From an archaeon (GTDB taxonomy: Archaea; Micrarchaeota; Micrarchaeia; Norongarragalinales; UBA97): DNA of 64,000 nucleotides. The stretch covers positions 87,711 through 151,710 of the forward strand of contig JAGVFW010000013.1 in the NCBI GenBank assembly GCA_020057405.1, written 5' to 3'. Below, one piece after another: positions 709 to 32,842 of the stretch. The notes beneath the pieces are model-generated. The model searched no databases and was not told the origin of the DNA. It was given only the letters and a program-made list of their open reading frames with translations. Position 1 is the first letter of the stretch, and each line of letters begins with the position of its first letter. The position numbers and the translations under genes are program-made.

Positions 709-2238
709 GTGGGATGGGTTTTGGCGGCAGCGGTACTGCTTGCAGTGGTCGGGATGGCGGCGGGGGAGAGTGTGCAAGAGATTGTCGCCGCTACAAACTT
801 GCTTGACAACACTCGACCCGCGTTCCAGCTAGTGCAGGCGGCTAACGCCAACTTGACTTGCTGCGGCAAAGGCCCGCCAGTAGGGGCCGCCAACGCAAGC
901 TCGCCTGCCGGAACTACGTTTGCGAAGCTCGTGGACTTTAGCCCAAGTGTTTTTGACGTGCTTTCTGGCGAGCTCGTGCTCAATCAAACTGGCAATGTCA
1001 CTACCTTTGCTTCTGCGACAATACTCAAGCCGCAGTTAAGCGGGCAAGGCGACTGCAAGACAGTGAAGCTGCTTTCAACAGTAAACTCGAGCCTGACCCT
1101 AACGCAAGTGCCGCAGGGAAAAGTTCTTGCGAGAACAGGACACTTTGAGTCCCCGCAACTTGACTTTAATTCCTTTCAAAACTATTCCGCCGGTTGGCCA
1201 AGGCGAGGGCGCACGGAGCTGCCGTACGACTTGGACGGCGGGGAAGGAAAAGAAGCGCTCGGCTTGAGGCTCAACTACTCGGTTCAAGCGACTTTCACCG
1301 TAGCGCACTACAAGAACGTGCAACACCGAGTTTGTTTCATCACTTGTTTCTACTACTGGACCTGCGACTACTCAAGCCAAGAACAAAAAGCCTACCTCTT
1401 AGCTGCAGTTCAAACGCAAAACGCATCGTACTACGCAGGAGGGCCCGGGGCCGAGTCGGTAGAAGAACTCGCAAGCGGGGGACTTACGTCAAACACGACG
1501 ATTGAGATGAAGACGCCATTCGACTACGTGAAAATCACGGCCGGCGCCGCCACTGCGAAAATCCGCACTGCCGCTTTCCCCCTTTCGTATGAGAATTCAA
1601 GTTACGAGTTCATCAGGATAAACGCAGTGCCAACGCACGCCAGCGAGACAGTGGGTGCACGTATTTTGAGGGAGTCGAAGTTAGGCACTACAGTAAATTT
1701 GGAAGTTTGGTTTCCTGCTTCATCACAAGCGCAAGTGCTCCTGCAAACGCCATTCGCGGAGGTACGCTTGGCTGCCAGCATAAGCCGGGTTAGTGCGGAA
1801 AGACTGGCCGTCATCGCAGCGCGGAGCGGTCGGGCTGGAGAGAAAATTAACGCGACTGCTAGCGTAACTTTTGAAAACGGCTCGCCTGTTGAAGGCAGGC
1901 TGGTGAAATTCACTTTGCCGGAATCGGCTGGTTACGACGCGATGACCAACGGCAGCGGGTTGGCCGTCGCGAGCTTTTTGATGCCTGAAGGGCAAAACGC
2001 GGTCGTGAAGGCAAGCGAATCAAACGGGGCGCGGGAGCTCGAGGCGCAAAGCACGGTTTTCGTGCAAAACTCTTCTCCTCGGCTGCTTCTCGACTACGCC
2101 CAACTGGCCTTAGCCTGCGCGATTGGATTTTGGTGCATTCTTTTCGGGCTTGGCTTGCGCCGTGAAGCGAGTCATGCACTTGGGACAGGGCTTGCTTGTG
2201 CGGCAATGCTGTTTGTCGCCTACTCGGTGGTCGGATGA
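709..2238 (+). CDS. secreted, C-terminally membrane-anchored protein with an Ig-like domain (T4SS-locus associated)
   Basis: Likely start is GTG 709 after the pilin stop; signal peptide, Cys cluster (CFITCFYYWTC), Ig/Big-like segment (ENGSPVEGRLVKF…TNGSGLA), two C-terminal TM helices. Confidence 0.7.
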   Translation: MGWVLAAAVLLAVVGMAAGESVQEIVAATNLLDNTRPAFQLVQAANANLTCCGKGPPVGAANASSPAGTTFAKLVDFSPSVFDVLSGELVLNQTGNVTTFASATILKPQLSGQGDCKTVKLLSTVNSSLTLTQVPQGKVLARTGHFESPQLDFNSFQNYSAGWPRRGRTELPYDLDGGEGKEALGLRLNYSVQATFTVAHYKNVQHRVCFITCFYYWTCDYSSQEQKAYLLAAVQTQNASYYAGGPGAESVEELASGGLTSNTTIEMKTPFDYVKITAGAATAKIRTAAFPLSYENSSYEFIRINAVPTHASETVGARILRESKLGTTVNLEVWFPASSQAQVLLQTPFAEVRLAASISRVSAERLAVIAARSGRAGEKINATASVTFENGSPVEGRLVKFTLPESAGYDAMTNGSGLAVASFLMPEGQNAVVKASESNGARELEAQSTVFVQNSSPRLLLDYAQLALACAIGFWCILFGLGLRREASHALGTGLACAAMLFVAYSVVG

Positions 2239-3149
2239 AGGTATCTGCTATTGCGGTTGCTGCGCTCTTGCTAACGGGTTTTGCCAGCGCCTTTGACGGA
2301 TGCCAGGACAACGGCTGCAACGATTTGCTGTGCAAGATTGCGGGATTGCCAAACGCGATTCAGTGCGCGCTGGAAACCGGGATAGCAAGCCAGCTTGAAA
2401 ACGCGGTGACCGGCATTCTCTCGCGGGTCACGCAGTTTATTGTCGGAAGCCCGCCCCTTGACGGCAGTTCGACTAGGGAACTGTTTTCGCTCGTGTCGTT
2501 TTTGGTCGAACTCTTGTTCGTGCCAATCCTGATGCTAAACGGCTTGAAGCTCACGTACTCGAGCATGTTTAGCGCGCAAGAACGCGCGGAGGCAAAAGAC
2601 GAGGTAAGGCAAGTTCTCGTGGCAATGGTGCTCGTGTGGGCGGCCTACGACTTGTACGCGCTTGCAACTGACGCGACAAACGCTTTTTCCGCCGCTTTGG
2701 CCCCGAGCCAGGCGGACTGGAATAATGCAGTAAACGCGAGTGCGGGCTTGTCCGGAATTGGGAACCTGGTTTTGCTCGGGTTAATCGTGTTTTCGCTACA
2801 GTTTTTCGCGTTTACGGCTTTCGCGAGATATATTCTGGCTTACGTCGGGCTCTTTACGCTAGTAATCTCGATGCCGCTTGAGGCGCTTCCCGCAACTTCC
2901 GGAATTGGTAGGGCAATGCGGAACCTAGTCGTGGCAAACTTCATCGTGCAAATTCTCCAGGCACTTTTCCTCAAAATTGCGGTAACAAGCATCGCGGACT
3001 TGAACACGAGCTACACTTACAAGTTCGCTTTCATTACGGGAGTTCTTTTGGTCGGGGCACTGGCGGGAATAGTGGTTTACGCCGCGGCCCTGCTTTCGTC
3101 AATTTCGAGGAGTCCGGCCGCTAGGATGCTTGCTTACGCGGCGAGGTGA
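2235..3149 (+). CDS. polytopic membrane protein, VirB6/CedA-like channel component
   Basis: ATG 2235 overlaps the previous stop (ATGA); signal peptide plus about 6 TM segments; lies between pilin and VirB4. Confidence 0.65.
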   Translation: MKVSAIAVAALLLTGFASAFDGCQDNGCNDLLCKIAGLPNAIQCALETGIASQLENAVTGILSRVTQFIVGSPPLDGSSTRELFSLVSFLVELLFVPILMLNGLKLTYSSMFSAQERAEAKDEVRQVLVAMVLVWAAYDLYALATDATNAFSAALAPSQADWNNAVNASAGLSGIGNLVLLGLIVFSLQFFAFTAFARYILAYVGLFTLVISMPLEALPATSGIGRAMRNLVVANFIVQILQALFLKIAVTSIADLNTSYTYKFAFITGVLLVGALAGIVVYAAALLSSISRSPAARMLAYAAR

Positions 3150-3155
3150 AAATAA

Positions 3156-4190
3156 ATGGAAGGGGAGTTTGGAAAAGGGCTGTTGTACGAAGTGCCGGAG
3201 GAACTCCGCCACGAGGAGCGGGTGCTGTGGGTGTTTTCGTTACGGCAACTGCTCATACTCCTGCCATTTGCCATCGTGGCGCTGGCTTGCTTCCTGGGAC
3301 TCGAGAACCTGGACTTTAAGGCGCGGCTCGCGATTCCGGCAATCATCTTATTTGCGGGTTATGCGCTTGCCTGCATTAAACCCGTGCAAGAGGCGGCTTG
3401 GCGCCACGTCAAGTACTTGATCACGCCTAGGCGGACAAGCTGGCGCGAGCCCCTCGCATCCGCTCACTTCGTCGGGGTTGAGGAAGTAAAAGCCAACGCG
3501 GTCTTCACTTCTGACGGCCACCTGCTTTCAGTGCTTTTGGTGACGCCCCTTGACTACAGCGTGCTTGGAGAGGACCAGAAGCACGCGCTCGTCTACGGCT
3601 ACCGCTCGTTTCTAAACGCAATCTCGTTTCCAGTGCAGGTGGTGATGCGCACGACGAAAGTCAACTTGAAAGAGTATTTTGCGAAAGCCAAGGCAAAGGC
3701 CGCTAAGGCGGGTGATTCTGCGGCGCTATTGGAAATTAGCAAGTTCGAGCAGTTCGTCGAAGACTTCATCTCTTCGCGGGGAGTCAATGACCGGCTGTTT
3801 TACCTCGTAATCCCGCAGGAGAAGGGAAAAGACCTCGAAAAGTCGTTGCGAGAGCTTGAAAACAAGACTGCCGTGTGCTGCGAAAAACTGGCGGCAATCG
3901 GCATTGCGTGCCGGAGGCTGGACGACAACTCACTAGTCTCGCTTTACGCAAGCTTTTTCGGGGGATTCGTGGAAGCCGGAGCCGATTACCTATCGCTCTT
4001 GACTTTCCTTGACTTTGCGCAAGAGCAACGGGAAAAACTCGAGGCTGCGGGAGCGAAAATGCGGGCTAAAGCCGTTTTCATTGGAATGGAGGTCGAACAA
4101 AGTGCTGGAAAGACTGTTTGGAAGGAAAAGGGAAGAACCGAAGCTCAAGGAAAGGCTATTGCCGTACCTGCTGGCGCCCTCAAGCATTGA
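3156..4190 (+). CDS. PrgI/VirB3-like protein with a C-terminal soluble domain
   Basis: N-terminal YEVPEEL…ERVLWVFSLRQL followed by two TM helices is the PrgI pattern; FLNAISFPVQVVMR region typical of conjugative TraE/PrgI fusions. Confidence 0.7.
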   Translation: MEGEFGKGLLYEVPEELRHEERVLWVFSLRQLLILLPFAIVALACFLGLENLDFKARLAIPAIILFAGYALACIKPVQEAAWRHVKYLITPRRTSWREPLASAHFVGVEEVKANAVFTSDGHLLSVLLVTPLDYSVLGEDQKHALVYGYRSFLNAISFPVQVVMRTTKVNLKEYFAKAKAKAAKAGDSAALLEISKFEQFVEDFISSRGVNDRLFYLVIPQEKGKDLEKSLRELENKTAVCCEKLAAIGIACRRLDDNSLVSLYASFFGGFVEAGADYLSLLTFLDFAQEQREKLEAAGAKMRAKAVFIGMEVEQSAGKTVWKEKGRTEAQGKAIAVPAGALKH

Positions 4191-6387
4191 AAACAAGCCA
4201 GACTACATAAAAATCGGCGAGCAGTATTGCCGCGTAATCGCAGTGCTTGGCGTCCCGCGAGTTGTGCGCGCTGGTTTTCTTAACGCGCTGATGATGCAGC
4301 AAGGCGATTTTGACGTGAGCATTCACGCTAGCCCGCGGCAAGTTGAGGACACTATAGCTGAACTAAACCACGAGCTGGTCAAGATGGCCGCGGACCTCTA
4401 CTCGATGGAAAGCAGGGGCGACGTGGTGCCACCTAGCCTGAAAATGAAGTACGACGACACTATGCGCATCCTACAGCTGCTGCAAAGCGGGGAGGAAAAG
4501 CTCTTCGACTTCTCCCTCTACATCAACATTCGTGCAAAAAGCCCGGAAAAACTAGACGAGATGACCGGGAGAATGGGCGCGACCCTAGGGCAACTGGCGC
4601 TTCTTTACAAGACTATGGATTTGCAGATGCACGAAGCGCTTCCAAGCGTCCTCCCAATCGCCAGAAACCGGCTCGGCATCACCCGAAACATGACGAGCTC
4701 GGCCCTCGCAGCGTGCTTCCCCTTCACAACAAGCAACCTGCAGGTAATGGAAAACGGGATAGTAATGGGCGTAAACGACCTCACAGGCATTCCGATAATC
4801 ATAGACTTGCACGCCCTCCAGAATTCAAACGCCTTGGTGCTCGGAGGCAGCGGCAGCGGAAAGAGCTTCAGCGTAAAAACCATTCTCTTGCGCTTGAGGC
4901 GCAACGGCACGCGCGTCTACGTAATAGACCCGCAAGGAGAGTACGCCAAGCTCGCCAAGAAATTTGGAAAAGGCGCGCAAGTAGTCGGATTCAACCCGCA
5001 AGACAACAACGCGATAAACCCATTTGACCTAAACGGGCTGCGGCTAAGTGAGAAAGTCCACTCGCTGATGAGCCTATACTCCATAATTTGCGGCGAACTT
5101 TCCCCGGCCCAAAAAAGCCTGCTTGACGAAGCCACTTACGCAATTTACGAGGAACGCGGAATAAGTGACTTTACGCAAGCGAATGAAAAAACTAGGATGC
5201 CGACCTTTCGCGACCTGCACGACTACTTCAGCAAGAAAGCAAACTCGCCGAATGACCTGATGCAGTCGCGTTCAACTGCTTTGGCGCTCTTAAACCGCGT
5301 AAAACCGTTCGCGACCGGCTCGATGAAGTGCTTCGACTCGCAGACTAGCGTAGACCTGGCGGCTGACTTCGTCGTTTTTGACGTCTCCTACTTTATCGAC
5401 AAGATGCAGACGGTCGCGCCCCCCGCGATGTTCATCGTACTCGACTTTTTACTCAACAAGATGAAGGAAGACTCACGCCAGAGAAAAGCAATAGTGGTCG
5501 ACGAAGCCTGGCGCCTTTTGCGTGGCCCCAGCATTTCGGAATACCTCCTCTTGTTCGCAAAAACAGCCAGGAAGTACAACACTTCCCTACAAATAATCAC
5601 CCAAGAACTAGGCGACCTTGGCAAAAGCGAGGCCGGAGCGGCGGTTCTGGCCAACACGTCAGTAAAACTAGTGCTGAGGCAAGAACCCTCTGAAATAGAA
5701 GCCGTTGGAAATGCGCTCAAGCTAAACGCGAACGAAAAAAACCGCCTTCTCTCGGCACAACCGGGCCACGGCGTGCTGTTCATCGAGAATTCCCGCATTC
5801 CGTACTACAGCATCCACATGCCTGAAGAAAAGGAATTCATTTCAACAAAACCAGAAGAAATGACGAGCCTAGAAAAAGAACACGCGGTCGTCAGGGCGGT
5901 TGAAGAGCAAGCGCCATTCGAGAAACTCGACTTCGAGAACGGCTTTTACAAGCGCGGCGACCTCACGCCCGGAGAGGTCATGCTATTGCTCAAAAATGGC
6001 TTTACCGTGGCGACAGCCTACGACATTCGGCTCATGCGGCCAGTTGACTTCGTAGTAAAACCCAAGGCACCGGAAAGCGCGCAGCACACAATCTACGTGA
6101 CTCAAGTCGAACGCCTAATTCGAGAACACACATCTAACGTAAAGGTGAACGTGGGCAACGATGCCGACATCGTCTTTGTTGACAAAGACGGTAAGAAAAT
6201 TGCGCTCGAAATTGAGACGGGAATGCGGCGCGACTACCTGCTCAAAGCCAACTCCGCACACCTGCGAAAGTACGACGAGGTATACTTCCTGGTTACGAGC
6301 GTGCACTTGGTGGAAAAATACCGGAAAATAGGGAGGGTGCTGACGAGGTCGGAAGTCCAGAGGTTTGTGGAAGAGAGATTGAACTAG
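4102..6387 (+). CDS. virB4: VirB4-like ATPase with a C-terminal PD-(D/E)XK-like domain
   Basis: Walker A GGSGSGKS, VIDPQGEY, Walker B IVVDEAW, ARKYN…ITQ, MTSSALAACFPF; GTG 4102 is preceded by GGAGGT; tail ESAQH…DADIVF…IALEIETG. Confidence 0.85.
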   Translation: MLERLFGRKREEPKLKERLLPYLLAPSSIENKPDYIKIGEQYCRVIAVLGVPRVVRAGFLNALMMQQGDFDVSIHASPRQVEDTIAELNHELVKMAADLYSMESRGDVVPPSLKMKYDDTMRILQLLQSGEEKLFDFSLYINIRAKSPEKLDEMTGRMGATLGQLALLYKTMDLQMHEALPSVLPIARNRLGITRNMTSSALAACFPFTTSNLQVMENGIVMGVNDLTGIPIIIDLHALQNSNALVLGGSGSGKSFSVKTILLRLRRNGTRVYVIDPQGEYAKLAKKFGKGAQVVGFNPQDNNAINPFDLNGLRLSEKVHSLMSLYSIICGELSPAQKSLLDEATYAIYEERGISDFTQANEKTRMPTFRDLHDYFSKKANSPNDLMQSRSTALALLNRVKPFATGSMKCFDSQTSVDLAADFVVFDVSYFIDKMQTVAPPAMFIVLDFLLNKMKEDSRQRKAIVVDEAWRLLRGPSISEYLLLFAKTARKYNTSLQIITQELGDLGKSEAGAAVLANTSVKLVLRQEPSEIEAVGNALKLNANEKNRLLSAQPGHGVLFIENSRIPYYSIHMPEEKEFISTKPEEMTSLEKEHAVVRAVEEQAPFEKLDFENGFYKRGDLTPGEVMLLLKNGFTVATAYDIRLMRPVDFVVKPKAPESAQHTIYVTQVERLIREHTSNVKVNVGNDADIVFVDKDGKKIALEIETGMRRDYLLKANSAHLRKYDEVYFLVTSVHLVEKYRKIGRVLTRSEVQRFVEERLN

Positions 6388-6440
6388 CCCGGAAAGGTGC
6401 TTTCGCAAGCAATTTAAACACGCACTACAACTTATTATAG

Positions 6441-6689: not shown

Positions 6690-6946
6690 AACTCATGGCC
6701 TACTCCGTTCAGTTTTCGCAGGAAGCACGGGCAAACCTAGAGAAACTAGATCCACCTACGGCACGCAGAGTGATTGAAAAAATAAAGGTTGCAGCGGCAG
6801 ACCCCTTTCACTATTTCAAGCGGTTAACCAACAGCGAACTCTACAAGCTTCGCGCCGGCGATTGGCGCATCCTCGCACTCATCAACCCCACAAACGATAC
6901 CCTATTCATCGTCACCCTAGGTCATCGTAAGAACATCTACGAGTAG
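6686..6946 (+). CDS. relE: RelE/ParE family toxin
   Basis: YSVQFS…LEKLD…YKLRAGDWRI…LGHRKNIY RelE signature. Confidence 0.88.
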   Translation: MKLMAYSVQFSQEARANLEKLDPPTARRVIEKIKVAAADPFHYFKRLTNSELYKLRAGDWRILALINPTNDTLFIVTLGHRKNIYE

Positions 6947-8637
6947 GGCAAGCCGTCAGCCACTTCTAGTGCTTTCTCCCTCACCATCGCCGCCGACAAT
7001 CCAGCGTCAACCACGCGAATTAACCTCCATCCTTTTTTGGCCAACAGCGTTTCCTTTTCTCCGTCGCGTGCTTTTTGCTTGTCCTTTGCGTGAAAGAACG
7101 CCCCATCCCACTCCACCGCAAGCTTCCTTTCAGGAAAAGTGACGTCAATCTCGAAAGGCGGTAACACCGTCCTGTCGGAAAAAACTATCTTCTCGGCCGG
7201 CAAAAGCCTGCGAAGCTCTTCATAAAACAAGCGCTGGTTGAAGGAACCGGAAATGAACGGCGCCTCGGCTTCAGCGTTCTCCTTCACGCCGTCCTCCCAC
7301 AACGGCTTAACGCGCACTTTAGTCACCTCACGCTTGACACTCGTCGAGAAAAGCGCCTCGAACTGCTGAAGGGAATGCAATTCCTCCTCAACCAACCTCG
7401 CCTTGTCAGAATACTTTCCGCCGCAAAGCAAAGCAACCGCGTAAGCAGCGTCGTCAGGCTCGCGCGTCAAAAACACGGCATTAACCGCACAGTTAGCTGC
7501 AAGCGCCGGGTCAAGCGCTTTCACGCTCTGGCTTACGACAATCAAACCGAGCCGAAACTTTCGCGCTTCGCGTAATACCGTCGCGACGTACGACGGCTCT
7601 TCTTCAGTGCCAACGCAGAGCTTCTGCGCCTCATCTACCAAAGCAAACAAAACCGGCAGGTTTTCAAGCGACTGACAGTAAGAATAGAGCTTACGCAAGA
7701 AAACCTCGGCAAAAACAGCTTGCGCGTCAGCCGACCGCAACCCCTTAAGCTCAAAACAACAGGTCTGACCCGTGACAACCGAAAACGGAACCTGCGTTTT
7801 TGAAGAGAACACCCCGCTTAGAGAAATCATGTCGAGCCTGCGCTTCAACGAAAAGAGACTCGCGTCCGGCTTCTTCTGGCTCGACAAAAGAAAACTACAG
7901 TACGCCGACACTTCAGGAAGAGAAGGCGGCCGCCTGTTCCACGAACCCCTATCACCATCGCGAAAACCCCGCTCCTCAAACGCACCCTTGACGCATTTGG
8001 CCAAAAAATACGCTTGAATATCCCCAAGCCCTAAAACCCGCTTTAACATGGAAGAGCTTTCCGCAGATTTTTCAGCCGGCGTACAACCATCCAACTCAAA
8101 AAGCGCAAGATTGACTTTTCGAGCATCAAACACCCGCCCCCCACACGCACGAACGACGCCAGCGTACTCCTCGTGCGGGTCAAGCACGACCACTGGCGCC
8201 CCCGCTTTCGTCAACCCATAAACCAAGCGCTTCGCCAAAGTCGACTTACCAGAACCACTCGCCCCCACAATCAAGGTGGAAGGCGCCTGCTCCTTAGAGT
8301 AGTCGACGGAATAACCCCTAAACAATAATGGACTTACCCACGCGAAATCCGTTCGAGGCGAAGAACTCCCACGCGCATACAACCGCTTCAAGAGCCACAA
8401 CCACGGAAAAGCGAAGTAAAACGCGGTTTTCGCAACGTTCGACGCAGTAAAACTACCCGTCTTGCGCAACACCCACCTAACTTTACCTATCTTGACACTA
8501 ACATTTTCCATCTTTGCCAACTCCGACGCGAGCTGCAAAACTTTTTTCCGGGAAAAGCCCGCGTCAAAGCCACGGCGAAGGCGCGCCGCGAGCCTTAAAC
8601 TCCTTAGCGAGCCCACAAAGGCGAAGCGACCGCCCAA
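6937..8637 (-). CDS. HerA/DUF87 (VirD4-like) ATPase fused to a DUF559/Vsr-like endonuclease
   Basis: GASGSGKS, VLDPHEEY, LVDEAQ, EARKFRLG…SQ; C-terminal FEIDV…LAVEWDGAFFH…RDGEK…GWRLIRV. True start may be ATG 8511. Confidence 0.8.
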   Translation of the reverse strand: MGGRFAFVGSLRSLRLAARLRRGFDAGFSRKKVLQLASELAKMENVSVKIGKVRWVLRKTGSFTASNVAKTAFYFAFPWLWLLKRLYARGSSSPRTDFAWVSPLLFRGYSVDYSKEQAPSTLIVGASGSGKSTLAKRLVYGLTKAGAPVVVLDPHEEYAGVVRACGGRVFDARKVNLALFELDGCTPAEKSAESSSMLKRVLGLGDIQAYFLAKCVKGAFEERGFRDGDRGSWNRRPPSLPEVSAYCSFLLSSQKKPDASLFSLKRRLDMISLSGVFSSKTQVPFSVVTGQTCCFELKGLRSADAQAVFAEVFLRKLYSYCQSLENLPVLFALVDEAQKLCVGTEEEPSYVATVLREARKFRLGLIVVSQSVKALDPALAANCAVNAVFLTREPDDAAYAVALLCGGKYSDKARLVEEELHSLQQFEALFSTSVKREVTKVRVKPLWEDGVKENAEAEAPFISGSFNQRLFYEELRRLLPAEKIVFSDRTVLPPFEIDVTFPERKLAVEWDGAFFHAKDKQKARDGEKETLLAKKGWRLIRVVDAGLSAAMVREKALEVADGLPYS

Positions 8638-18100: not shown

Positions 18101-19027
18101 GTGGGCTTGCAGGCAACTATCATCGGGGCAGGAAGGACAGGCAGCAGAATAGCTGCCGCACTGGCAAAAACCAGCCTGACGCTGACGATAATCGACCGCG
18201 ACTGCCTGGAAGAAAGCGACCTGACCGACAGCCCCGTTTACGGCCGCGCCGACTTGGGCAAAATGAAGGCCGAGGCGCTCGCAAAACACGTTGGCGCATA
18301 CGGAACTCCGATTTGCGAACACTTGTGCGCACAAAACATCGACGAACTGCTTGAAGGCACCCGAATCGTGCTTGACGCTACCGACAACTGGCACGCCCGC
18401 GCGCTAGTCAACGAATGGTGCTGGAAAACCAAAACCCCATGGATCTACTCGGGCGCCCTGGCCGCAAAAGCCATGGCTAGCGCCATCACCCCACCCCAAA
18501 AACCATGCTGGCTTTGTTGGAATGCGATTGAACCCACCCAAGTGCTAAGCTGCAGCACGAGCGGCATCGACGGACGCGCGGCAGACGCGGCCGCGCAAAA
18601 GGCGGTCGAACAAGCGCAAGCGATTGCGCAAGAAAAACGGCCAGAGCTGGCGGGAAAACTGTTTTTCGCCGATGTCGGAAAAAAAGTGGAGACGCAAACC
18701 CCCCTTGTCGCAAACCCGGAATGCCCGGTCTGCGCAAAGGGCAAGCTTCCGCTGCTTAACGGAACGGAAACGGCGCAACTCGTGTGTGGAAGCGGGCAAT
18801 GGCTCTTTCTGAATGTGGGCCTGAAGGAAAAAGTTAGGCACTACACCGTACAAGCGCTCGCGGCGAAACTTGGCCGCGGGGCAACGGCAATTGAAAGCGT
18901 GGTGCAAATAACGCGGGAAAAAGCAAGCGCCATCGTTTTTCCCGGCGGACGCGCCACAATAAGGGCAAAGGACGAGCCTGCCGCACGCAAGCTCAACGAC
19001 GAGATTGCCGAGCGCCTCTCCGCGTAA
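18101..19027 (+). CDS. ThiF/MoeB/E1-like adenylyltransferase
   Basis: IIGAGRTG, IDRD, VLDATDN, CWLC, SC…G, CPVC. Confidence 0.9.
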   Translation: MGLQATIIGAGRTGSRIAAALAKTSLTLTIIDRDCLEESDLTDSPVYGRADLGKMKAEALAKHVGAYGTPICEHLCAQNIDELLEGTRIVLDATDNWHARALVNEWCWKTKTPWIYSGALAAKAMASAITPPQKPCWLCWNAIEPTQVLSCSTSGIDGRAADAAAQKAVEQAQAIAQEKRPELAGKLFFADVGKKVETQTPLVANPECPVCAKGKLPLLNGTETAQLVCGSGQWLFLNVGLKEKVRHYTVQALAAKLGRGATAIESVVQITREKASAIVFPGGRATIRAKDEPAARKLNDEIAERLSA

Positions 19028-20237: not shown

Positions 20238-20356
20238 CGGGCGCGGAGGGATTCGGACCCTCGGCCTGCCGCACTTAGCTCACTAGCTGCTAAAACAACG
20301 CTCACTAGGGTCGCTGTTAAGAGCCGGCCGCTCTAACCAAACTGAGCTACGCGCCC
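20238..20356 (-). tRNA. tRNA-Lys(CTT) with a 44-nt intron (20272-20315)
   Basis: GGGCGCG/CGCGCCC acceptor, GCTC/GAGC D stem, GCCGG-CTCTTAA-C|CGGC, T stem GAGGG/CCCTC. Confidence 0.88.
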
Positions 20357-21540: not shown

Positions 21541-21615
21541 AGCGGGGTAGGGTAGCCAGGAGTGCCCGCTGGGCTCATAACCCGGAGACCACAGGTTCAA
21601 ATCCTGTCCCCGCTA
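21541..21615 (+). tRNA. initiator tRNA-Met(CAT)
   Basis: AGCGGGG…CCCCGCTA with A1-U72; GGG-CTCATAA-CCC anticodon stem; GGTTCAAATCC. Confidence 0.95.
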
Positions 21616-21798
21616 CCTACTTTTCTTCCGCTTAGCTTGGGGCTTGGTCCGTTTCTTGCGCGCGAAAACTTTGGCTGGCGGCTGCTGGCTTCCGAAGTAC
21701 CTGAGCACTTTTTGCATCACACGGCCATTGACGCGCTTGCTCTCGACTAAGTAGTAGTAGAGGTTGCCCTTGATTTTCTTGCTGCGCACGAATGCCAT
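21613..21798 (-). CDS. small basic beta-sheet DNA-binding-like protein
   Basis: MAFVRSKKIKGNLYYYLVESKRVNGRVMQKVLRYFG plus a Lys/Arg tail; resembles the N-terminal module of IS1634-type transposases but has no catalytic domain. Confidence 0.75.
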   Translation of the reverse strand: MAFVRSKKIKGNLYYYLVESKRVNGRVMQKVLRYFGSQQPPAKVFARKKRTKPQAKRKKSR

Positions 21799-21856
21799 GG
21801 AAAAAGTTAGGCACTACAGGAATAAAAAGCGCTCGCTGGAAAAAGTTAGGCACTAC
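21798..21856. promoter_or_regulatory. two exact 20-bp direct repeats TGGAAAAAGTTAGGCACTAC (21798-21817 and 21837-21856)
   Basis: Read directly from the sequence; they fill the intergenic gap at the start codon of the small basic gene. Confidence 0.85.
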
Positions 21857-24548: not shown

Positions 24549-24549
24549 G

Positions 24550-25948: not shown

Positions 25949-26338
25949 TCAGAGTATGACAAAGGAAATGGGTTTGCCCTTCGAGCTGAAAGCCGCAGTC
26001 ATGCCCACGGAGTAGGGTGGGCCGGAAGCAATCAAGTGCGCGCGGCCGTAACGGCCGAACAGGTGCAGGTCCGCAGACGACGGTCGCGCCGGGCTGTTGG
26101 GGTGCGAGTGGAACGTTCCAACGATGCCTGCCGAAAGCGGGACGTTAACCGAGTCAAACCACACGCTAGAGGAATTGGCTTCCGAAAGCGGCGCGAGATA
26201 GAGTTTTTCGACAATCACGTCCTCGCCATCGTAGCGGCCGGGAAACAGGCCGAGAAACTCGTTCGGGTAGCTGTTGGCCGCGCCAAGCAGGCAACTTTCA
26301 AAAACATCGCGCGGGAGCAGGAGTCGCATCAAAATCAC
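25949..26338 (-). CDS. JAMM/MPN+ (Mov34) metalloprotease
   Basis: PNE…FHSHP…PSSAD. Confidence 0.9.
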   Translation of the reverse strand: MILMRLLLPRDVFESCLLGAANSYPNEFLGLFPGRYDGEDVIVEKLYLAPLSEANSSSVWFDSVNVPLSAGIVGTFHSHPNSPARPSSADLHLFGRYGRAHLIASGPPYSVGMTAAFSSKGKPISFVIL

Positions 26339-26443
26339 TCTTTGTAGTGCCTAACTTTCCTTCCTCATCCACGGGCGCCCGGTTTCTGTCACTGCGGTTC
26401 CCCCTTACTGTTATTAAGTTGCTTGCCTACATATACTTTCATA

Positions 26444-26794
26444 ATGACTGTATTTTCCTGCAGCAATTGCGCCTTTCGTTTCGAGGGCGACGCGCCCAAG
26501 GCGTGCCCGCGCTGTGCAAGTATTGACATTACTGAATTCCGCCAGACGCGTCACGAGCGTGGAGGCGTAACTATCGTCCGCGAGGAACGCCCGGCGCCCG
26601 AAGGCACGGACGGGAAGCCCCACAAACTAATGCACTACCGTGAGGGCAAGGCGGGCTGGCAGGACTTCCACAATCAACAGTCGACCGCGTGCCCCAACTG
26701 TGGGGGCACCGAATTCGACCGAGACGCCAAACGCAAGGAAAAAGTCTGCCGCAAGTGCGGCGAAGTCATGCCCCTCCCGCGCAGGTACGCGTAG
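26444..26794 (+). CDS. double zinc-ribbon protein
   Basis: CSNC/CPRC and CPNC/CRKC pairs. Confidence 0.75.
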   Translation: MTVFSCSNCAFRFEGDAPKACPRCASIDITEFRQTRHERGGVTIVREERPAPEGTDGKPHKLMHYREGKAGWQDFHNQQSTACPNCGGTEFDRDAKRKEKVCRKCGEVMPLPRRYA

Positions 26795-26824: not shown

Positions 26825-28243
26825 TTAGTATTGCTGGCGCGAGCGGTAGTACTGGTAGGAAAGCGCGCCCGCCACTGCGACTAGGAGTGCAAATCCAATC
26901 AACTCGGCAGTCGAGACGCCGGGAATCTGCTGCGAGAGCGACGCGGGCGAACTCGCTTGCTTGTCAAGGGCATCGCGTTCGGCGACAAGCCGCGCCGTGA
27001 CGTTCTGGAAATCAGCGCGCGAGGCGTTTCCGTTGATGCGCAGGTTCTGCTCGAGCACTATAAAGTCGGTTTCAAGTCGCGTTACGCGGTCGGCAATTTG
27101 CTGCGCGTTGTTAGGGTCCGAGTTCGCAAGTGCCCGTCCCGCCGGTTCCTCGATGGCAGACAGCGCCCTTGTGGCGGTACGGTAGTCCCCAAGCACGGCC
27201 CCCGCAGCGCTAATCCGGCCAATCGCGTGCGCGTACGCTTTCGAAAACTCACGAGTCTTTGTGATTGCGTCGTCGTACGTAGTCGCGTCAGAGCTGGCAA
27301 GCGTGCGTAGGTTTTCCTCGTCCGAGAATGAAAAGAGCGAGCGAGCGCCGCGAACGGAAGTAAATTCGCTGTTGAATTCAGAGGCGCTCGTGCTATACTC
27401 GTCAAGGCGGGAAATCGCCCACGTGGAGTAGTAGGGGGCGGCCCCGCGCGTTAGCGTCGCCGCGACCTTGGCGCGAATCGCATCCTTGCCCGCGGTCGTA
27501 TCGGCGTCAATGTAGGCTCCTGCGATGTCGCTCATCCTGTCAAGGTCCGCCGACCCAAGGGTACAGCGGTTTAGCCGGCCGTTAGTGGCAAACGGGGGGT
27601 ACGCAACCATGTGCAAGTGCTGGGTGGTAAAGAGCCCATACCCGGCCTTGGCTTTTCCAAGCGCCGTTGCCGCTGCTCCCGCGGCAGTCGCGTCGCCAGT
27701 CTCAAGCGCGCGGCCTGCAGCTTCCAAGTCGCTTGCGGCGAGGGTCATTTCAGCAAGGCCGGCGTCAATCCCGGCCTTGGCTTCGACAATGGAGAAACTG
27801 ATGATGCCCCGCCACAAGCCGGTGCCCCAAAGGTAGCCGCAGCGGAACTTGTAGTAGCTGGTTTCCATGCAGTTGGACCCGGCGCCGGAGGCAAAATCGT
27901 CGTAAACTTGCCGGCACACGGCAACTCCGTTCCCCAAAGCAGTCGCCCGCGCACTGAATTCCTTGGCTTCTGCGGGGGAAATCGCCAGCCGCACGTCGCT
28001 TAGGGCCTCAACCGCTTCGTCGGGTGAGAGCGGCCCGCCCGTGACGTTATCCAAAAGCACGAGTGAACCCACCGAGCCCTTCACGACGACCGCCCAACCA
28101 TCGGCGTAGTGCACAGTTGGTGAGTCAACCACGTCCTCGTTAGGCAGCAAAAACGCCCTTGCGTCATCCGCTGGAGACGCCCAAGCTAGGGGCGCAAACA
28201 GGGCGGTCCACGCAAGCAAAAGTAAGGCGGCAAATCGGCGCAT
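26825..28243 (-). CDS. secreted alpha-helical protein with a C-terminal membrane anchor
   Basis: Signal peptide, helical body, C-terminal TM followed by YYRSR. Confidence 0.75.
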   Translation of the reverse strand: MRRFAALLLLAWTALFAPLAWASPADDARAFLLPNEDVVDSPTVHYADGWAVVVKGSVGSLVLLDNVTGGPLSPDEAVEALSDVRLAISPAEAKEFSARATALGNGVAVCRQVYDDFASGAGSNCMETSYYKFRCGYLWGTGLWRGIISFSIVEAKAGIDAGLAEMTLAASDLEAAGRALETGDATAAGAAATALGKAKAGYGLFTTQHLHMVAYPPFATNGRLNRCTLGSADLDRMSDIAGAYIDADTTAGKDAIRAKVAATLTRGAAPYYSTWAISRLDEYSTSASEFNSEFTSVRGARSLFSFSDEENLRTLASSDATTYDDAITKTREFSKAYAHAIGRISAAGAVLGDYRTATRALSAIEEPAGRALANSDPNNAQQIADRVTRLETDFIVLEQNLRINGNASRADFQNVTARLVAERDALDKQASSPASLSQQIPGVSTAELIGFALLVAVAGALSYQYYRSRQQY

Positions 28244-28341
28244 TGCACCAACCTCACTCTACGCGCGCTTTTAATTCTATACGGCAAGGGGGCCGCAATT
28301 ACTGGGGTTAAAAGCAGCCCTGCGGGCAAAAGCAACCTTAA

Positions 28342-29079
28342 ATGTATTACCTTGCGGTACATGTTGTTATGGGAAAAAAAGAGGGCCTAGACCTAGTTTG
28401 GTCGGGCGCGACATCGGGTGCTTACGCAGCGTGCTTTGGTAAGTGGCGAAAGGTGACCGAAGTCTATGGCATGCTCTACGGCAAGGAAGGTCAAGCCTAC
28501 AATACCGGCCGCGTGTCTGTAGCAATCAAGCAGCTGGCCAAGGCGGGGTTTCTCAAGGCCGCCAAGCACCCCAGCACAACCTGGCGGCTCTACACTTCGA
28601 CACTTGAGCCCCTCTTCACCGAAGCGGAGCTTTACGGCGTCGAATTCGACGACAAGCAAAAGCAATTCATTGAAGCTTACCTTGGATGCGCTGCCGGAAA
28701 GCCCATTGGCGCGCTTATAACTCCCCGAATTGCCTTTGTCAAGAAAGCGCCCTTCCCTGCAATGGAGCGGATGCGCGCCGAACTCTCGGCCCTCGTGTCG
28801 CTTGCCCTAGTCCACTTGTTTTTCAAGCAGCTAGAGGGCTATAAAATCCAGGCCTACGTCGAAGCACTATCCGAAACCCTTGGGAAGGAAGGCAAGGACG
28901 TAAAGCCGCTAAGTGCGTCTCCCGCAAGCGACGTGGCCGCCCGCCTTGCCCTGGAGGCCAAGGAAGAGCTGGCCAAGGCCGGGGGCAAGCCCGAGGGAAC
29001 CGCCCTTTTCCGCCTCATCAAGTACCTTTACCCCGGCGCCTACGTCGAGCTCCTAGAGCTTGGCCGCCAGGCGGTTTGA
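28342..29079 (+). CDS. hypothetical protein with an N-terminal winged helix
   Basis: VSVAIKQLAKAGFL…WRLYTS pattern. Confidence 0.6.
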   Translation: MYYLAVHVVMGKKEGLDLVWSGATSGAYAACFGKWRKVTEVYGMLYGKEGQAYNTGRVSVAIKQLAKAGFLKAAKHPSTTWRLYTSTLEPLFTEAELYGVEFDDKQKQFIEAYLGCAAGKPIGALITPRIAFVKKAPFPAMERMRAELSALVSLALVHLFFKQLEGYKIQAYVEALSETLGKEGKDVKPLSASPASDVAARLALEAKEELAKAGGKPEGTALFRLIKYLYPGAYVELLELGRQAV

Positions 29080-29146
29080 AAAAGCTTATTACCCAGTTCC
29101 GACCCAATAAGTAGTGCTAGTTTTCGTGTTTAGTGAGGTAAAATAG

Positions 29147-29635
29147 ATGATGAACCAAGGCGGCGTCAGGCCGCTTAACAAGCGTTGGCTGACTTCATTT
29201 AGGAAGGAAAAGAAACTCGAAGACTACCTCCTAGTGGGCGAGCCGCTCGTCCAGTGGCTGACGCAAAAAGGCGAGTGGCGCAAGCTTCTAGTCCGCTGCA
29301 CCGCAATCGAGTGCCTCGCAGTGTTCAAGCACGCGCGCCTCAAGCGGAGGCTCAACGTCGTCATCCGCGGCAAGGGCGGAGAGTTCAACAACTTCACCGA
29401 ATCGCTAGGCGAGCTTGTCTTCCTTACCGACCGCCTCGGCGCTGCCGACTACGCGGCACTGGCGTTTCCCGTCAGCATGAAGACGCTCATCGTCAGCCAG
29501 GCGCAGAACATGCCCGCGAACTGGAAGAAACTCGGCAAGACTTTTAACGCAACTCACGTCTTCTTCGTCTCCGAAACCCAGCCCACCGCGGTTGAGGAAA
29601 TCTCGTGGGACGGCGTCCTCAAGCAAAAAGTCTGA
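29147..29635 (+). CDS. hypothetical protein
   Basis: GAGGT RBS upstream; coding-like codon usage. Confidence 0.65.
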   Translation: MMNQGGVRPLNKRWLTSFRKEKKLEDYLLVGEPLVQWLTQKGEWRKLLVRCTAIECLAVFKHARLKRRLNVVIRGKGGEFNNFTESLGELVFLTDRLGAADYAALAFPVSMKTLIVSQAQNMPANWKKLGKTFNATHVFFVSETQPTAVEEISWDGVLKQKV

Positions 29636-29640
29636 AGTTC

Positions 29641-30303
29641 ATGGACTCGCTTAAAGTCCGCGACGCCAAGATAACGTGGCTCGGTCACGCGACCTTCACC
29701 GTTGACTGGCAAGGGGGCCGCGCGTGCTTCGATCCCTTTCTATTGCCCCCCTCTGCCCCAAAGGCAGCTTGCGACCTCGTGCTTGTCACGCACGAGCACT
29801 TCGACCACTGCAACCCAGAAAAGCTGGCGCGCGTTAGCAACGCGAGCACGACCGTAGTTTGCGGGCCCAACTGCGCAGCCAAATTCTCGCAACTGAACCT
29901 GAAGACAACCGAGCTTACCGCGGGCCAGTCGGCAACCGTAGCCGGAGTGAAAATCATAGCAGTGCCCGCCTACAACGTGGCAAAGCCGTTCCATCCCCGC
30001 GGCCTCGGTGTTGGATTCGTCGCCGACTTTGGTGGGGTGAAAATCTACCATGCCGGTGACACCGACCACATTCCGGAAATGAAATCATTTGCGGCAATGA
30101 AAATAGACGTGGCGCTCTTGCCAATCGGCGGTCACTACACTATGGACTCGGAGGAAGCCGCCCGCGCCGCAAACGACATTGCCCCCGCTTTCGTCGTGCC
30201 AATGCACTACGGCACGATGCCCGAAATCAAGGGCGATGTCAAGGCATTCGCTGCCCTTGTCGAAAAGAAAACAAAAGTAGTGGAGCTAGAGCCGCTAAAG
30301 TAA
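29641..30303 (+). CDS. MBL-fold metallo-hydrolase
   Basis: WLGHA, THEHFDH, YHAGDT, LPIGG, PMHYG. Confidence 0.93.
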   Translation: MDSLKVRDAKITWLGHATFTVDWQGGRACFDPFLLPPSAPKAACDLVLVTHEHFDHCNPEKLARVSNASTTVVCGPNCAAKFSQLNLKTTELTAGQSATVAGVKIIAVPAYNVAKPFHPRGLGVGFVADFGGVKIYHAGDTDHIPEMKSFAAMKIDVALLPIGGHYTMDSEEAARAANDIAPAFVVPMHYGTMPEIKGDVKAFAALVEKKTKVVELEPLK

Positions 30304-30331
30304 AAACCGCGGGAAACGAAGGCCCGCGGCC

Positions 30332-30790
30332 TTAGCGCTTTCGTTTAAGCTTCTTTTTCACGCTCTTCTTGGCCGCGTGCTTTCTCACACGGGCCTTGAG
30401 GCGCGCCTCAGCTTTGGAACCCGTCAGCTTCACGGGCTTTCTCCGGCCCGCGGCCCCCCGTTTTGCAGCGTGCTTTACCGAACCTGTCACGCGCTCGATT
30501 GCCTCAATCAAGCGGCCGATGAGGTTCCCTCGCGTAGGTTCCCTGTCGACTGGCGTCATGTCGCGCCCGTGGTGCTTTGGCTGCGCCCCGTGGCTGGCTG
30601 TGATTCGCTTCCCGCACTTACGGCACACGAATTCGAGTGTGGCCCCGCGCCTGTCACCGACCGTGGCGGCAGTGTTCTCGCCCCCATCGTCATCGTATTC
30701 CTTAGGGTTCATGCGCTCGTCGAGGTCATCCGCCTCGTGCACCTCGCGCGCCTCTTCTTCAGCAATAGCTTCCTTCAAGTCCCGTGCCAT
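30332..30790 (-). CDS. hypothetical protein: acidic N-terminus, CxxC…HH metal site, basic tail
   Basis: FVCRKCG…PKHHGRDM; GGTGA RBS. Confidence 0.7.
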   Translation of the reverse strand: MARDLKEAIAEEEAREVHEADDLDERMNPKEYDDDGGENTAATVGDRRGATLEFVCRKCGKRITASHGAQPKHHGRDMTPVDREPTRGNLIGRLIEAIERVTGSVKHAAKRGAAGRRKPVKLTGSKAEARLKARVRKHAAKKSVKKKLKRKR

Positions 30791-30901
30791 TTCTCATCAC
30801 CTGCTTATGTTATAGTGCAACGTAGTGGTGAAATAAAAAAGAGAAGCAAGGGCGGAAAACAAAAAGAAGAAGGAATTGGGGCGTTTGCCCCGTTTCCGAA
30901 C

Positions 30902-31063
30902 TTAGGGCTTCTTCATCAAGTTCTTGCGCTTTACGAATGCCCAGAGCTTCTTGGTCATTTCGCTTGGCGCGATTGGACTCGTGCCGAAGACTTCGCCGAC
31001 TGTAGTGTCCTTGACACTTGCGAAGCCGACGGTAATGCCGCCGAATGGTTTCTTAACTACCAT
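30902..31063 (-). CDS. 53-aa SWIB/MDM2-like microprotein (not in the ORF track)
   Basis: Manual translation MVVKKPFGGITVGFASVKDTTVGEVFGTSPIAPSEMTKKLWAFVKRKNLMKKP*; AGGTGA RBS. Confidence 0.75.
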   Translation of the reverse strand: MVVKKPFGGITVGFASVKDTTVGEVFGTSPIAPSEMTKKLWAFVKRKNLMKKP

Positions 31064-31218
31064 TTACATCACCTATTTTTTAATTGGATCCCGTCGAAGC
31101 AACGCGCGTCGCCCCTTCCCCGGAAAACCAAAATCCTTACCCCCCCTCCCTTTAAATAGGTAGTGTTTTTCTCCCTCGCAAAAAACAGTTTAAACACTTT
31201 GCCCGCGTAACGCATTTC

Positions 31219-32736
31219 ATGCCCCGGCGCATACCTGCGACAATGGCAACCCAGCATCCCGACAACGCCGCGGCGCCCGCGTGGCTTGCCGCAAGCGATG
31301 GCTTCATCGACACGCGCCACGAAATCGAGGAGTGCCACCGTTCGTTTGCCGAGTTAGGCTGCACGGAATACATGTGGGACTGGGAAGGCAAGCACGTCGA
31401 CGAGGCCGTAATCGAGCGTCTGCTTGAAAAGCACCATGCCTTCTTTTCACGCCACCAGCTTGGCAAAGACCTTTTCCTGACTTACCGGCTGCCAAACGTC
31501 TGGGTCGAGAAGGGCTACCGCATCGCAAGGGCCTTTGCTTCAATCATCAGCGCCAATGACGTGGCCCGCGAGGTAAAACTCCAATGCCCGCCTGTCTTCG
31601 AATGCATTTTGCCCCTGACGACTACTGGCGCTCAGCCTTACCTCGTGCGCCGCCAGTACGCCGCCATCGCAAAAGCCTTTGGCGGCGAGGAAATCTCAAA
31701 AGCGTTTGCACTAGAGAAAGTCGGCCCCGCCGACGTCCGCGTCATTCCGCTCATCGAGCATCCCGATAACCTGATTGGGGCAGACGAGATCCTCTCCGAC
31801 TACGCCAAGGCCTGCGAGCAAGCGCACTTTCCACTCGATTACCTGCGCGTGTTCATTGCCCGAAGCGACCCCGCGCTCAACATGGGCCTATCTTCGGCTG
31901 TAATCGCCTCAAAGGCGGCGCTTTCCCGCTGCGCCGAGTTTGAAGAAGAGTCGGGCATTCCAGTCCACCCGATGATCGGCGTCGGTTGCCTGCCTTTCCG
32001 CGGCGGTCTCTCGCCGGAAACGGCAACCGCGTTTGCGAAAATGCACGAAGGAACGCACACTTACTCCATCCAGTCGGCCTTCCGCTACGATTATCCCCAA
32101 GCGCAAGTCAAAAAGGCAATTCGGGTGCTAAACGGCCGTCGGCGCAGCCGCTCGCCTGACAGTTTCGACTACCGAAAGCTAGCCAAGCTCTCCAACATCT
32201 TCAGCAAGCACTACCAGCACGTCATCGCGGGTGCGGCAACCACCATCAACAAGGCCGCGGCGTTCACTCCCGGCCGCCGCGAGCGCAAGCTGCACATAGG
32301 CCTCTTCGGTTATTCGCGCAAAGTCGGTACAAATGCCCTCCCGCGCGCAATAGGCTTTACTTGCGCCGCATATTCGCTTGGCGTTCCCCCCGAACTTTTC
32401 GGAACCGGCCGAGGCATTGCCGAGGCAAGGAAGGCGGGGTTGGGCGAGGAGCTCGAGGCATTCTGGCCGCTTTTGCACTCCAACATCCGCTCGGCAGGCT
32501 ACTACCTCAACAAGGAGAACCTCGCGATGCTTTCAGCCGGCAATTCCGCGTGGAAGGGAGTCCAGCAGGACGTGCGGTTCCTTGAGGAGTTCATCGGCGA
32601 GCCGCTCGGCCCCCTTGACGAAGACCACTTCGTCCACCGAAACCTCACGAGCAACATCCTGCTGCTATTGCGCAAGGGCCGCGACTGCAAGGAAGACGTC
32701 GTGAGAGCGGCCAAAGTCAGAAGAAGCGTCGGATAG
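31219..32736 (+). CDS. ppcA: archaeal-type phosphoenolpyruvate carboxylase
   Basis: MATQHPDN, YMWDWEGK, ARSDPALN, LPFRGG, QSAFRYD, LPRAIGF. Confidence 0.96.
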   Translation: MPRRIPATMATQHPDNAAAPAWLAASDGFIDTRHEIEECHRSFAELGCTEYMWDWEGKHVDEAVIERLLEKHHAFFSRHQLGKDLFLTYRLPNVWVEKGYRIARAFASIISANDVAREVKLQCPPVFECILPLTTTGAQPYLVRRQYAAIAKAFGGEEISKAFALEKVGPADVRVIPLIEHPDNLIGADEILSDYAKACEQAHFPLDYLRVFIARSDPALNMGLSSAVIASKAALSRCAEFEEESGIPVHPMIGVGCLPFRGGLSPETATAFAKMHEGTHTYSIQSAFRYDYPQAQVKKAIRVLNGRRRSRSPDSFDYRKLAKLSNIFSKHYQHVIAGAATTINKAAAFTPGRRERKLHIGLFGYSRKVGTNALPRAIGFTCAAYSLGVPPELFGTGRGIAEARKAGLGEELEAFWPLLHSNIRSAGYYLNKENLAMLSAGNSAWKGVQQDVRFLEEFIGEPLGPLDEDHFVHRNLTSNILLLLRKGRDCKEDVVRAAKVRRSVG

Positions 32737-32760
32737 CGTGTTCCGCCTGCCGTTTTTGTT

Positions 32761-32842
32761 TGTAGTGCCTAACTTGGCGTGCGCTGATTGGCCTGTAGTG
32801 CCTAACTGTGTTAGCCGGGCTTGCCGTTTGTAGTGCCTAACT
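32761..32842. repeat. three direct copies of TGTAGTGCCTAACT (starts 32761, 32794, 32829)
   Basis: Exact 14-mers with unrelated 19- and 21-nt spacers, between convergent ppcA and minD. Confidence 0.9.

Follow-up and report, generated by a model that had tools for sequence, protein, structure and literature searches.

A dispersed, conserved 14-bp word in a micrarchaeal genome and a small protein that is its candidate reader

Chromosome-wide systems of short protein-binding or signal sites are well known in bacteria, among them parS, matS, NBS/SBS, Ter and the DNA-uptake sequences (DUS). parS is a 16-bp palindrome near the origin, bound by a dimer of the helix-turn-helix (HTH) protein and CTPase ParB; known uptake sequences occur about once per kb. 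To our knowledge, sequence-specific chromosome-wide site systems are almost undescribed in archaea, save for origin boxes and SegB sites. Here we describe a candidate of this kind from a member of the Micrarchaeota (GenBank assembly GCA_020057405.1). A stretch of 64,000 nucleotides of contig JAGVFW010000013.1 (G000:C17:87711-151710), hereafter the window, carries eight exact copies of the 13-mer AGTTAGGCACTAC and, between them, the gene of a 61-residue protein, P0001. The source genome, G000, is a draft of 1,224,631 bases in 17 contigs, 90.6% complete, with a G+C content of 55-58%. Its gene content points to an archaeal host, since TFE, aTrm56, Cdc6 and an archaeal phosphoenolpyruvate (PEP) carboxylase are present.

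The original prediction, made from the window alone, listed eight exact copies of a non-palindromic 13-mer, and all eight were recovered: on the plus strand at 1679, 18832, 21805 and 21844, and on the minus strand at 26344, 32762, 32795 and 32830. Its arithmetic for the chance expectation under a uniform base model (0.002) is correct, the word does differ from its own reverse complement, and the longer form GGAAAAAGTTAGGCACTAC is found at 18832, 21805 and 21844. Shuffled windows (n=100, dinucleotide-preserving) contain a mean of 0.00 exact copies. Allowing up to two mismatches adds one doubtful site at 36385; the shuffle mean at this level is 0.76.

The enrichment extends to the rest of the source genome and to eight related genomes, as the original prediction had proposed to check. 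Genome-wide, G000 holds 21 exact copies of the 13-mer and 24 of its 12-mer core GTTAGGCACTAC, against 0.081 expected under a third-order Markov model; these lie on 10 of the 17 contigs, at a density of one per 51 kb. Of the 24 copies of the 12-mer, 21 are preceded by A and 23 are followed by a purine, giving a 14-bp consensus, AGTTAGGCACTACR; farther out there is only mild upstream A-richness. The 14-mer AGTTAGGCACTACA occurs 19 times exactly, four times with one mismatch, three times with two and 48 times with three; thirty letter-permuted control words have means of 0, 0.23, 5.2 and 60.1, respectively. All four one-mismatch copies differ at an end letter. Since copies with two or three mismatches are at or below the control level, the motif is all-or-none, almost without degenerate copies; such exactness is unusual for the regulon of a transcription factor. 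Likewise, 24 of the 25 TAGGCACTAC decamers in G000 are part of a full word, and the half-site GGCACTAC alone is not enriched (75 observed, 64 expected). Literature searches (full-text for TAGGCACTAC and GTAGTGCCTA, and DPANN with motif terms) returned, in the records and extracts they gave access to, no description of the word or of the protein.

Relatives differ sharply in how many copies they carry. Among 41 genomes of the same order, the 12-mer occurs 12 times in G001, 26 in G002, 30 in G017, 28 in G021, 23 in G025 and 15 in G033. It is rarer in G003 (three) and G005 (two), is found once each in G013 and G019, and has no copy in the remaining 30; a reversed control word occurs 0-1 times. 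G001, G003 and G005 also use a dialect, TTTAGGCACTACA. Across 301 genomes of the class (one of which, the unpublished G297, contributes only a count of two), the 11-mer TTAGGCACTAC reaches 16-30 copies in nine genomes, all from families f1 and f6, and 0-4 copies in the other 292. Four members of these two families (G004, G006, G011 and G029) have 0-1 copies.

The copies gather around the gene of P0001 or its short homologue. Within 10 kb of this gene there are four copies in G000, five in G002, five in G017, four in G021 and four in G025; about 0.4-0.5 per genome would be expected from copy number and genome size. In G000, five loci fall within 32 kb, a density reached by 117 of 5000 random placements. 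The region is syntenic across both families and includes TFE, Trm56, tRNA-Met, a 138-residue protein, an HTH protein, enolase and a zinc-ribbon protein.

The P0001 gene (21613-21798, minus strand) encodes the candidate binding protein. An AlphaFold2 model built on a 13-sequence alignment predicts a three-stranded antiparallel sheet (residues 2-9, 12-23 and 26-36), with a predicted local distance difference test score (pLDDT) of 93-95 over residues 1-30 and 89 over residues 31-40, followed by a disordered Lys/Arg tail. P0001 matches no Pfam, PHROG or NCBIfam family; two of its relatives weakly match phrog_1468, annotated as a transcriptional repressor (E 0.0015-0.007). A protein atlas search gave unnamed clusters only, together with a weak lead to DUF6788 for which Pfam offered no confirmation; a homologue search by word index turned up a single relative. 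When 1.84 billion representatives were searched with a profile, 2,358 proteins reached E <= 0.001, of which 157 reached E <= 1e-10. In these the domain is always N-terminal; it stands alone or precedes Fic, an IS1634 transposase (P0139), integrase-like domains (P0148) or others. P0001 is the only member of its domain class found in G000 at E <= 0.01.

Two main forms of the protein occur among the relatives. Short homologues of 51-101 residues, with basic and often Ala/Lys-rich tails, are found in G002, G003, G005, G017, G021 and G025; homologues of about 305 residues, in which the same N-terminal domain precedes a Fic core (HPFxDGNGR), are found in G004, G019, G023, G033 and G038. A family search confirmed the Fic domain for P0109 and P0087. 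A homologue in G022 has 43 residues and no basic tail. P0001 itself has no Fic core and ends at 61 residues, which places it outside the Fic family PF02661. The original prediction proposed looking for co-occurrence of the word with this protein family, and the two do go together: the short, tail-bearing form is present in seven of the nine site-rich genomes (G000, G002, G003, G005, G017, G021 and G025), and G001 has a fragment of the short gene cut at a contig end. No short homologue was found in G033 (78% complete) or in the site-poor f1/f6 members G004, G006, G011 and G029. The short protein is kept as a whole gene in eight genomes; its domain is conserved and its basic tail is variable.

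Family genes also tend to carry their own sites in coding sequence, to judge from peptides encoded by the word. LGTT, FGTT, VVP[KN] and VVPT are in-frame readings of the word and of its reverse complement, and all are enriched in 151 family representatives over shuffles (25/0.3, 14/0.04, 13/0.5 and 8/0.27, respectively). In G003 the DNA itself was compared: three VVPKT repeats in the tail coincide with three DNA copies.

The promoter of P0001 carries two copies of the word. The proximal copy (21805-21817, plus strand) lies 7 nt upstream of the ATG at 21798 and downstream of a TATA-like box, ctttttatt; the distal copy (21844-21856, plus strand) lies upstream of the box, at a spacing of 39 bp. 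The proximal layout is also found in G002 and G025, where the full word stands 7 nt before the ATG, and in the Fic-fused homologues; the 39-bp spacing recurs at G002:C15:112060/112099. In the Fic-fused homologues, GGCACTAC half-sites flank the TATA box of the gene's own promoter. At all six loci compared (five Fic-fused genes and the 43-residue gene of G022), the order is GTAGTG[GC][GC], about 29 nt, CACTAC, 4-24 nt and the start codon; the 29-nt stretch holds a TATA-like box (TTAAATA in most), and CACTAC is preceded by GG, GC or TC. Autoregulation is implied, because proteins of the family carry their own operator half-sites around their own TATA box.

Similar layouts occur more widely. In other families of the class, the copies in genomes with two of TTAGGCACTAC often form an inverted pair with a spacing of 36-39 bp; in G098, two such pairs stand directly before a Fic-fused gene of the family, so that the layout occurs twice. 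In G000 itself, two divergent Fic genes (C6:79700-81900) each have a diverged N-terminal beta-domain and promoter-flanking words of their own: GGCGTAGTCAC twice in direct orientation at one gene, and ATGGCTACA/TGTAGCCAT in inverted orientation at the other. L069 has the same layout with the word GTTATTACTCAT. These paralogue words are not amplified in G000 (1-5 copies). The pair of Fic genes may represent a natural specificity series for the DNA-binding domain. That domain and word vary together from promoter to promoter is the most compelling reason to suppose that the domain reads the word and regulates its own gene. Inverted word pairs are also seen at L032 and L036 (G109 and G085), beside a second repeated word, GTAGTCACCT; the neighbours there, read by eye, are small open reading frame (ORF) pairs and nucleotidyltransferase-like ORFs. 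Several operator classes appear to coexist at such loci, since both hold word pairs beside GTAGTCACCT.

These observations are most readily explained if the word copies are the cognate sites of an autoregulated P0001, acting as a sequence-specific regulator or nucleoid organiser; we put the probability of this reading at roughly 0.6. It upholds the general proposal of the original prediction that the word is a protein-binding site, and we infer binding itself from sequence comparison. AGTTAGGCACTACR would be the recognition site of P0001, which is encoded in the middle of the cluster. P0001 would be a stand-alone paralogue with a histone-H1-like tail, present in two archaeal families in which its operator word has multiplied to 16-30 exact copies per chromosome of 1.1-1.3 Mb. 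The sheet would lie in the major groove, with non-specific contacts added by the basic tail. One monomer per site is the probable stoichiometry, because the sites are asymmetric and mostly single. In f6, head-to-tail copies 13 bp apart from start to start are seen at G017:C2:84767/84780, G021:C9:127796/127809 and G033:C23:6262/6275; this spacing suggests side-by-side binding of two monomers.

P0001 most likely acts as a repressor, both of its own gene and at a few promoters nearby. Because the expected start point lies under the proximal site, P0001 bound there would shut off its own transcription. At the other sites, P0001 would most likely act as a sequence-specific roadblock, as a fixed block or nucleation point, or as a nucleoid organiser. 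New copies would arise in place by point substitution and then be held by selection in promoters, convergent spacers and coding sequence.

A further candidate target is the gene of the zinc-ribbon protein (26423-26794, plus strand). The copy at 26344-26356 (minus strand) lies in the divergent spacer between this gene and a JAB-domain gene (25949-26338, minus strand), and its reverse complement points at the zinc-ribbon gene. The upstream site is conserved between the two families: the orthologues of G000 and G025 (40% identity, E 2e-23) both have an upstream copy in the same orientation. An operator role, one of the possibilities raised by the original prediction, thus has sites at the regulator's own promoter (P0001, G001, G002 and G025) and at orthologous targets in its favour. 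It does not extend to the set as a whole; two thirds of the copies lie within genes or between convergent genes, and there is no excess of copies with two or three mismatches that would indicate graded affinity.

Gene and spacer positions in G000 were assigned with a greedy ORF set. Sixteen of the 24 copies lie within ORFs, eight on the coding strand and eight on the opposite strand, and the frames used are those left open by the word's own stop codons. The eight intergenic copies fall at five loci: one tandem spacer (the P0001 promoter), two divergent spacers and two convergent ones. Of 19 loci in G002, 9 to 11 are intergenic, and four of these lie in convergent spacers. Spacers are favoured by the copies, because intergenic DNA makes up only about 7% of G000. 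At the sites between convergent genes, the protein may act as a roadblock or mark a domain border; the H1-like tails point to local compaction.

Two in-gene copies had been read by the original prediction in different frames, with the conclusion that the constraint is on the DNA rather than on the protein. Both readings are correct: the copy at 1679-1691 (plus strand) is read KLGTT in the ORF 481-2238 (585 residues, no Pfam family, with LGTT at residue 401), and the copy at 18832-18844 (plus strand) is read KVRHY in a ThiF-family (E1-like) gene (18101-19027; ThiF 3e-32). The conclusion is borne out by comparison with relatives, in which motif letters are kept within genes while the flanks diverge. 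All 12 motif letters of the ThiF copy are the same in G000, G001 and G002. Of its 60-base flanks, 38 and 22 letters are kept in G001, which belongs to the same genus with a DNA identity of just 65-76%; 18 and 19 letters are kept in G002, which belongs to another genus. The copy at C17:16736 of G000 is also kept in G002. In family f6, the enolase gene has a copy in a variable loop (TKLGTT), with DNA identical in G017, G021 and G025 and diverged flanks; the G000 enolase has no copy at this position. Most of the remaining copies are not common to G000 and G002. Judging from these alignments, sites turn over, yet some appear to be held for long periods. The ThiF-type gene and the gene of the JAB deubiquitinase-like protein of prokaryotic type (25949-26338) are 7 kb apart and each touches a word copy; both may belong to a ubiquitin-like (SAMP-type) modification system.

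The origin of one copy could be followed directly. The in-gene copy of G002 at L025 aligns without gaps to its motif-free G000 ortholog, which reads GCAAAGCAATAC at this position; five substitutions separate the two (VRHY in G002, AKQY in G000). The copy arose by substitution, since there is no indel. This bears on the proposal that the words are remains of a mobile element, such as the ends of IS1634-type insertion sequences or of miniature inverted-repeat transposable elements (MITEs), or of an element integrated at tRNA-Met, with the small ORF as a leftover. Such an element could account for the domain at the head of the IS1634-family transposase P0139 and of the integrase-like-domain protein P0148, for the tRNA-Met gene (21541-21617, plus strand) that abuts the 3' end of the P0001 gene, and for inverted pairs 36-39 bp apart elsewhere, some of which lie by nucleotidyltransferase, methylase or integrase-like ORFs (read by eye). 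However, similarity among the 24 copies ends at about 15 bp, with flanks near random past -3/+1, the IS1634 transposase (NF033559) has no match in G000, the short protein is conserved as a whole gene, and the region is syntenic housekeeping DNA in both families. The copies are thus not the ends of a known insertion sequence or MITE, an outcome that the original prediction had named as fatal to its proposal; we regard a mobile origin as extremely unlikely.

The tRNA-Met gene also adjoins the homologues of G002 and G025, in altered form. In G002 (L027, C18, about 1235-1400), it appears by eye to be split by two inserts, one of which contains the full word, and ARAGORN calls no tRNA there; in G025, the tRNA-Met-like stretch beside the short gene lacks a 5' end. 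An interpretation of P0001 as a fragment of an SSV-type integrase, int(N), based on the peptide YYYLVES and the abutting tRNA, was considered and dropped; the long homologues are Fic proteins and the short form is conserved whole. A further tRNA of 119 nt, presumably intron-bearing, was found with Rfam at 20238-20356 (minus strand) and was missed by ARAGORN.

The right end of the cluster brings in a different explanation. Three direct copies (32762, 32795 and 32830, the last ending at 32842; minus strand) stand 33 and 35 bp apart in a 117-bp convergent spacer between the archaeal PEP carboxylase gene (31219-32736, plus strand) and the gene of a ParA/MinD-like ATPase (32854-33789, minus strand). 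G001 keeps one variant copy 3' of its PEP carboxylase gene. The triple repeat lies 12 bp after the stop codon of the ATPase gene, and the word could accordingly be the site of a centromere-binding protein, possibly P0001 itself, that acts with this ATPase in chromosome segregation, as in the parS/segS-like centromere of the original prediction. The clustering of sites in one region, partly within genes, recalls parS, and direct-repeat arrays occur in relatives, with five copies in G002:C23. This array (L031, 64147-64365) has a spacing of 45-66 bp and lies at or just 5' of the start of a gene whose product, judged by eye, resembles a multi-pass membrane protein; translation of the copies, should it occur, would give a GVRHY(G/K)K repeat.

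Against a centromere, the nearest homologues of the ATPase in G001, G002, G017, G021 and G025 do not share a contig with the short gene, and most of them stand 1-5 kb or farther from the closest word copy, so that adjacency is seen only in G000. ParB_N (PF02195) has no match in G000 (90.6% complete), and the control searches were positive in 11 of 14 genomes; the word is not a palindrome; and the only orc1/cdc6 (Cdc6_C) match is at C10:92639-92953, with the cluster on C17 of this 17-contig assembly. We therefore consider a centromere improbable. An organiser of the matS/MatP type is likewise not supported: the word lacks the 13-bp palindrome of matS, and its copies are on 10 of 17 contigs of the draft assembly.

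Another possibility raised by the original prediction is a DNA-uptake sequence that would serve import by VirB4/HerA-type machinery (Ced-like, or like a type IV secretion system) encoded at 4-9 kb of the window. The word is exact, non-palindromic and conserved across relatives, occurs in genes and spacers and arises by substitution, and a TraG/VirB4-like ATPase (4009-6387) and a HerA-like ATPase (6937-8637) are indeed present. One copy per 51 kb is, however, about fifty times below the density of known uptake sequences, and five loci fall within 32 kb instead of being spread evenly. Copies concentrate around one small gene in five of five genomes, and the same word is a promoter-flanking operator in families with only two copies. 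This clustering and operator use fit a DNA-binding regulator rather than an uptake tag, and an uptake role is very unlikely. The segment 4009-8637 by the first word copy resembles a conjugation, Ced or defence locus; the HerA/DUF87-like ATPase has a possible C-terminal restriction-endonuclease-like domain (sub-threshold in Pfam).

In the window, the left four copies are on the plus strand and the right four on the minus strand. Such a flip would be expected of a polar signal (Ter-like fork traps or KOPS/Chi-like guides) if the terminus or dif lay between 21.8 and 26.3 kb. This pattern does not hold elsewhere. On the 452-kb contig G021:C9, the orientations are interleaved (- - - - - + + - - - - + - - - + + +), and in G000 the orientation of sites is independent of local GC skew. 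The sole tyrosine recombinase gene (C17:34369-34866) is 53 kb before the window, and 21.8-26.3 kb is occupied by housekeeping genes. The Ter-like polarity suggested by the original prediction is accordingly dismissed as a highly improbable explanation.

A last explanation is that the word works at the RNA level, or as a promoter of a phage-type single-subunit RNA polymerase. TAGGCACTACAATA is listed as a promoter of Escherichia phage ECBP5 in a table of a review (PMC11617373). The word resembles this promoter over 10-13 letters, and six of the 21 copies in G000 continue ...ACAAT. The resemblance is best seen as a post-hoc coincidence, given a 10-mer search over 8 million papers. The polymerase family PF00940 was not found in G000, a weak argument as the search was positive in no control genome either. 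In-gene copies are split equally between sense and antisense (eight each), which argues against a role of the word in the transcript, and Rfam families overlap none of the copies. We give this explanation almost no credence.

Several points weigh against P0001 as the reader of all these sites. The word is directly upstream of only four of the eight short genes (G000, G001, G002 and G025), and not of those in G003, G005, G017 and G021. A plain operator model covers only a minority of the copies: most copies in G000 are in ORFs, and several of those in spacers cannot be promoter elements, with convergent spacers making up two of the five intergenic loci in G000 and four of about nine in G002. 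A sheet of 36 residues would not be expected to read 12-14 bp on its own. Foldseek comparison of P0001 with the PDB gave nothing below E 0.42, and a profile search of PDB sequences gave nothing at E <= 10, although matching sheets this short is difficult; it is the context that suggests DNA binding for this fold. In G033, which has 19 copies, no homologue other than a Fic-fused one was found. Since the co-occurrence counts draw on draft genomes that are related, they are not independent.

With these points considered, the site system itself is real, non-random and conserved, and the copies of the word are most likely the scattered operators of a small, new DNA-binding protein that descends from a Fic-type autoregulatory head. 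A more far-reaching version is put forward tentatively: that the protein and its asymmetric 14-bp sites form a sequence-specific chromosome-organising system of archaea with small genomes, in which the sites would serve as fixed anchor or roadblock points, the protein would be a domesticated head of a Fic toxin-like module, and point mutation would have sown the operator through the chromosome, with the coding sequences of enolase and a ThiF-type E1 included. If true, the logic of such a system would be comparable to that of ParB-parS or CTCF sites.

The organisms are uncultured, but the candidate pair of a 61-residue protein and a 14-bp word lends itself to work wholly in vitro. It draws attention to an unannotated, predicted DNA-binding domain family with 2,358 metagenome cluster representatives. 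It also outlines an evolutionary path from a private autoregulatory operator to dispersed chromosomal sites, and provides an instance of a DNA word that appears to be held by selection within conserved enzymes. A possible use is as a compact orthogonal DNA-binding module. To the right of the cluster, 33803-63829 (minus strand) holds very large genes of 2037, 1019, 1215 and 3373 residues, with only NEW3, MG2 or CARDB-type domains or none; these probably encode surface proteins.

The kind of system proposed, a chromosomal set of protein-binding sites, is known; the fold family of the protein is undescribed. As in ParB-parS, there are few to dozens of near-exact sites, many of them in genes, around the gene of the binder and under selection at the DNA level. 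Unlike parS, the word is asymmetric, the protein proposed to bind it has a 36-residue beta-sheet domain, and orc1/cdc6 is on another contig than the cluster. The word shares with the Neisseria DUS and the Haemophilus uptake signal sequence (USS) an exact asymmetric 10-12-mer, lineage dialects (GTTAGG and TTTAGG) and an origin by substitution; it differs from them in being about fifty times sparser, in its copies around one gene and in its operator role.

The closest likeness in gene organisation is to autoregulated toxin or Fic modules. In relatives of P0001 the N-terminal domain heads a Fic protein and half-sites flank its own TATA box, and P0001 keeps this layout. In contrast to these modules, P0001 lacks Fic and has a basic tail, and its operator is present at about 20 further loci, some of them in coding sequence; those of the Fic paralogues in the same genome have not spread. 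In its small three-stranded sheet, its presumed asymmetric monomer site of about 10 bp and the use of direct repeats, P0001 may resemble the arm-binding domains of the tyrosine recombinases lambda Int and Tn916 Int and the AP2-type domains, although it has no significant match to solved structures (best Foldseek E 0.42). The Lys/Ala/Arg-rich tails, strongest in the f6 homologues, bring to mind histone-H1-like, PAKKA-tailed proteins such as mycobacterial Hlp and chlamydial Hc1. Those proteins are sequence-unspecific, whereas P0001 combines its tail with a domain whose target of 12-14 bp seems to be exact.

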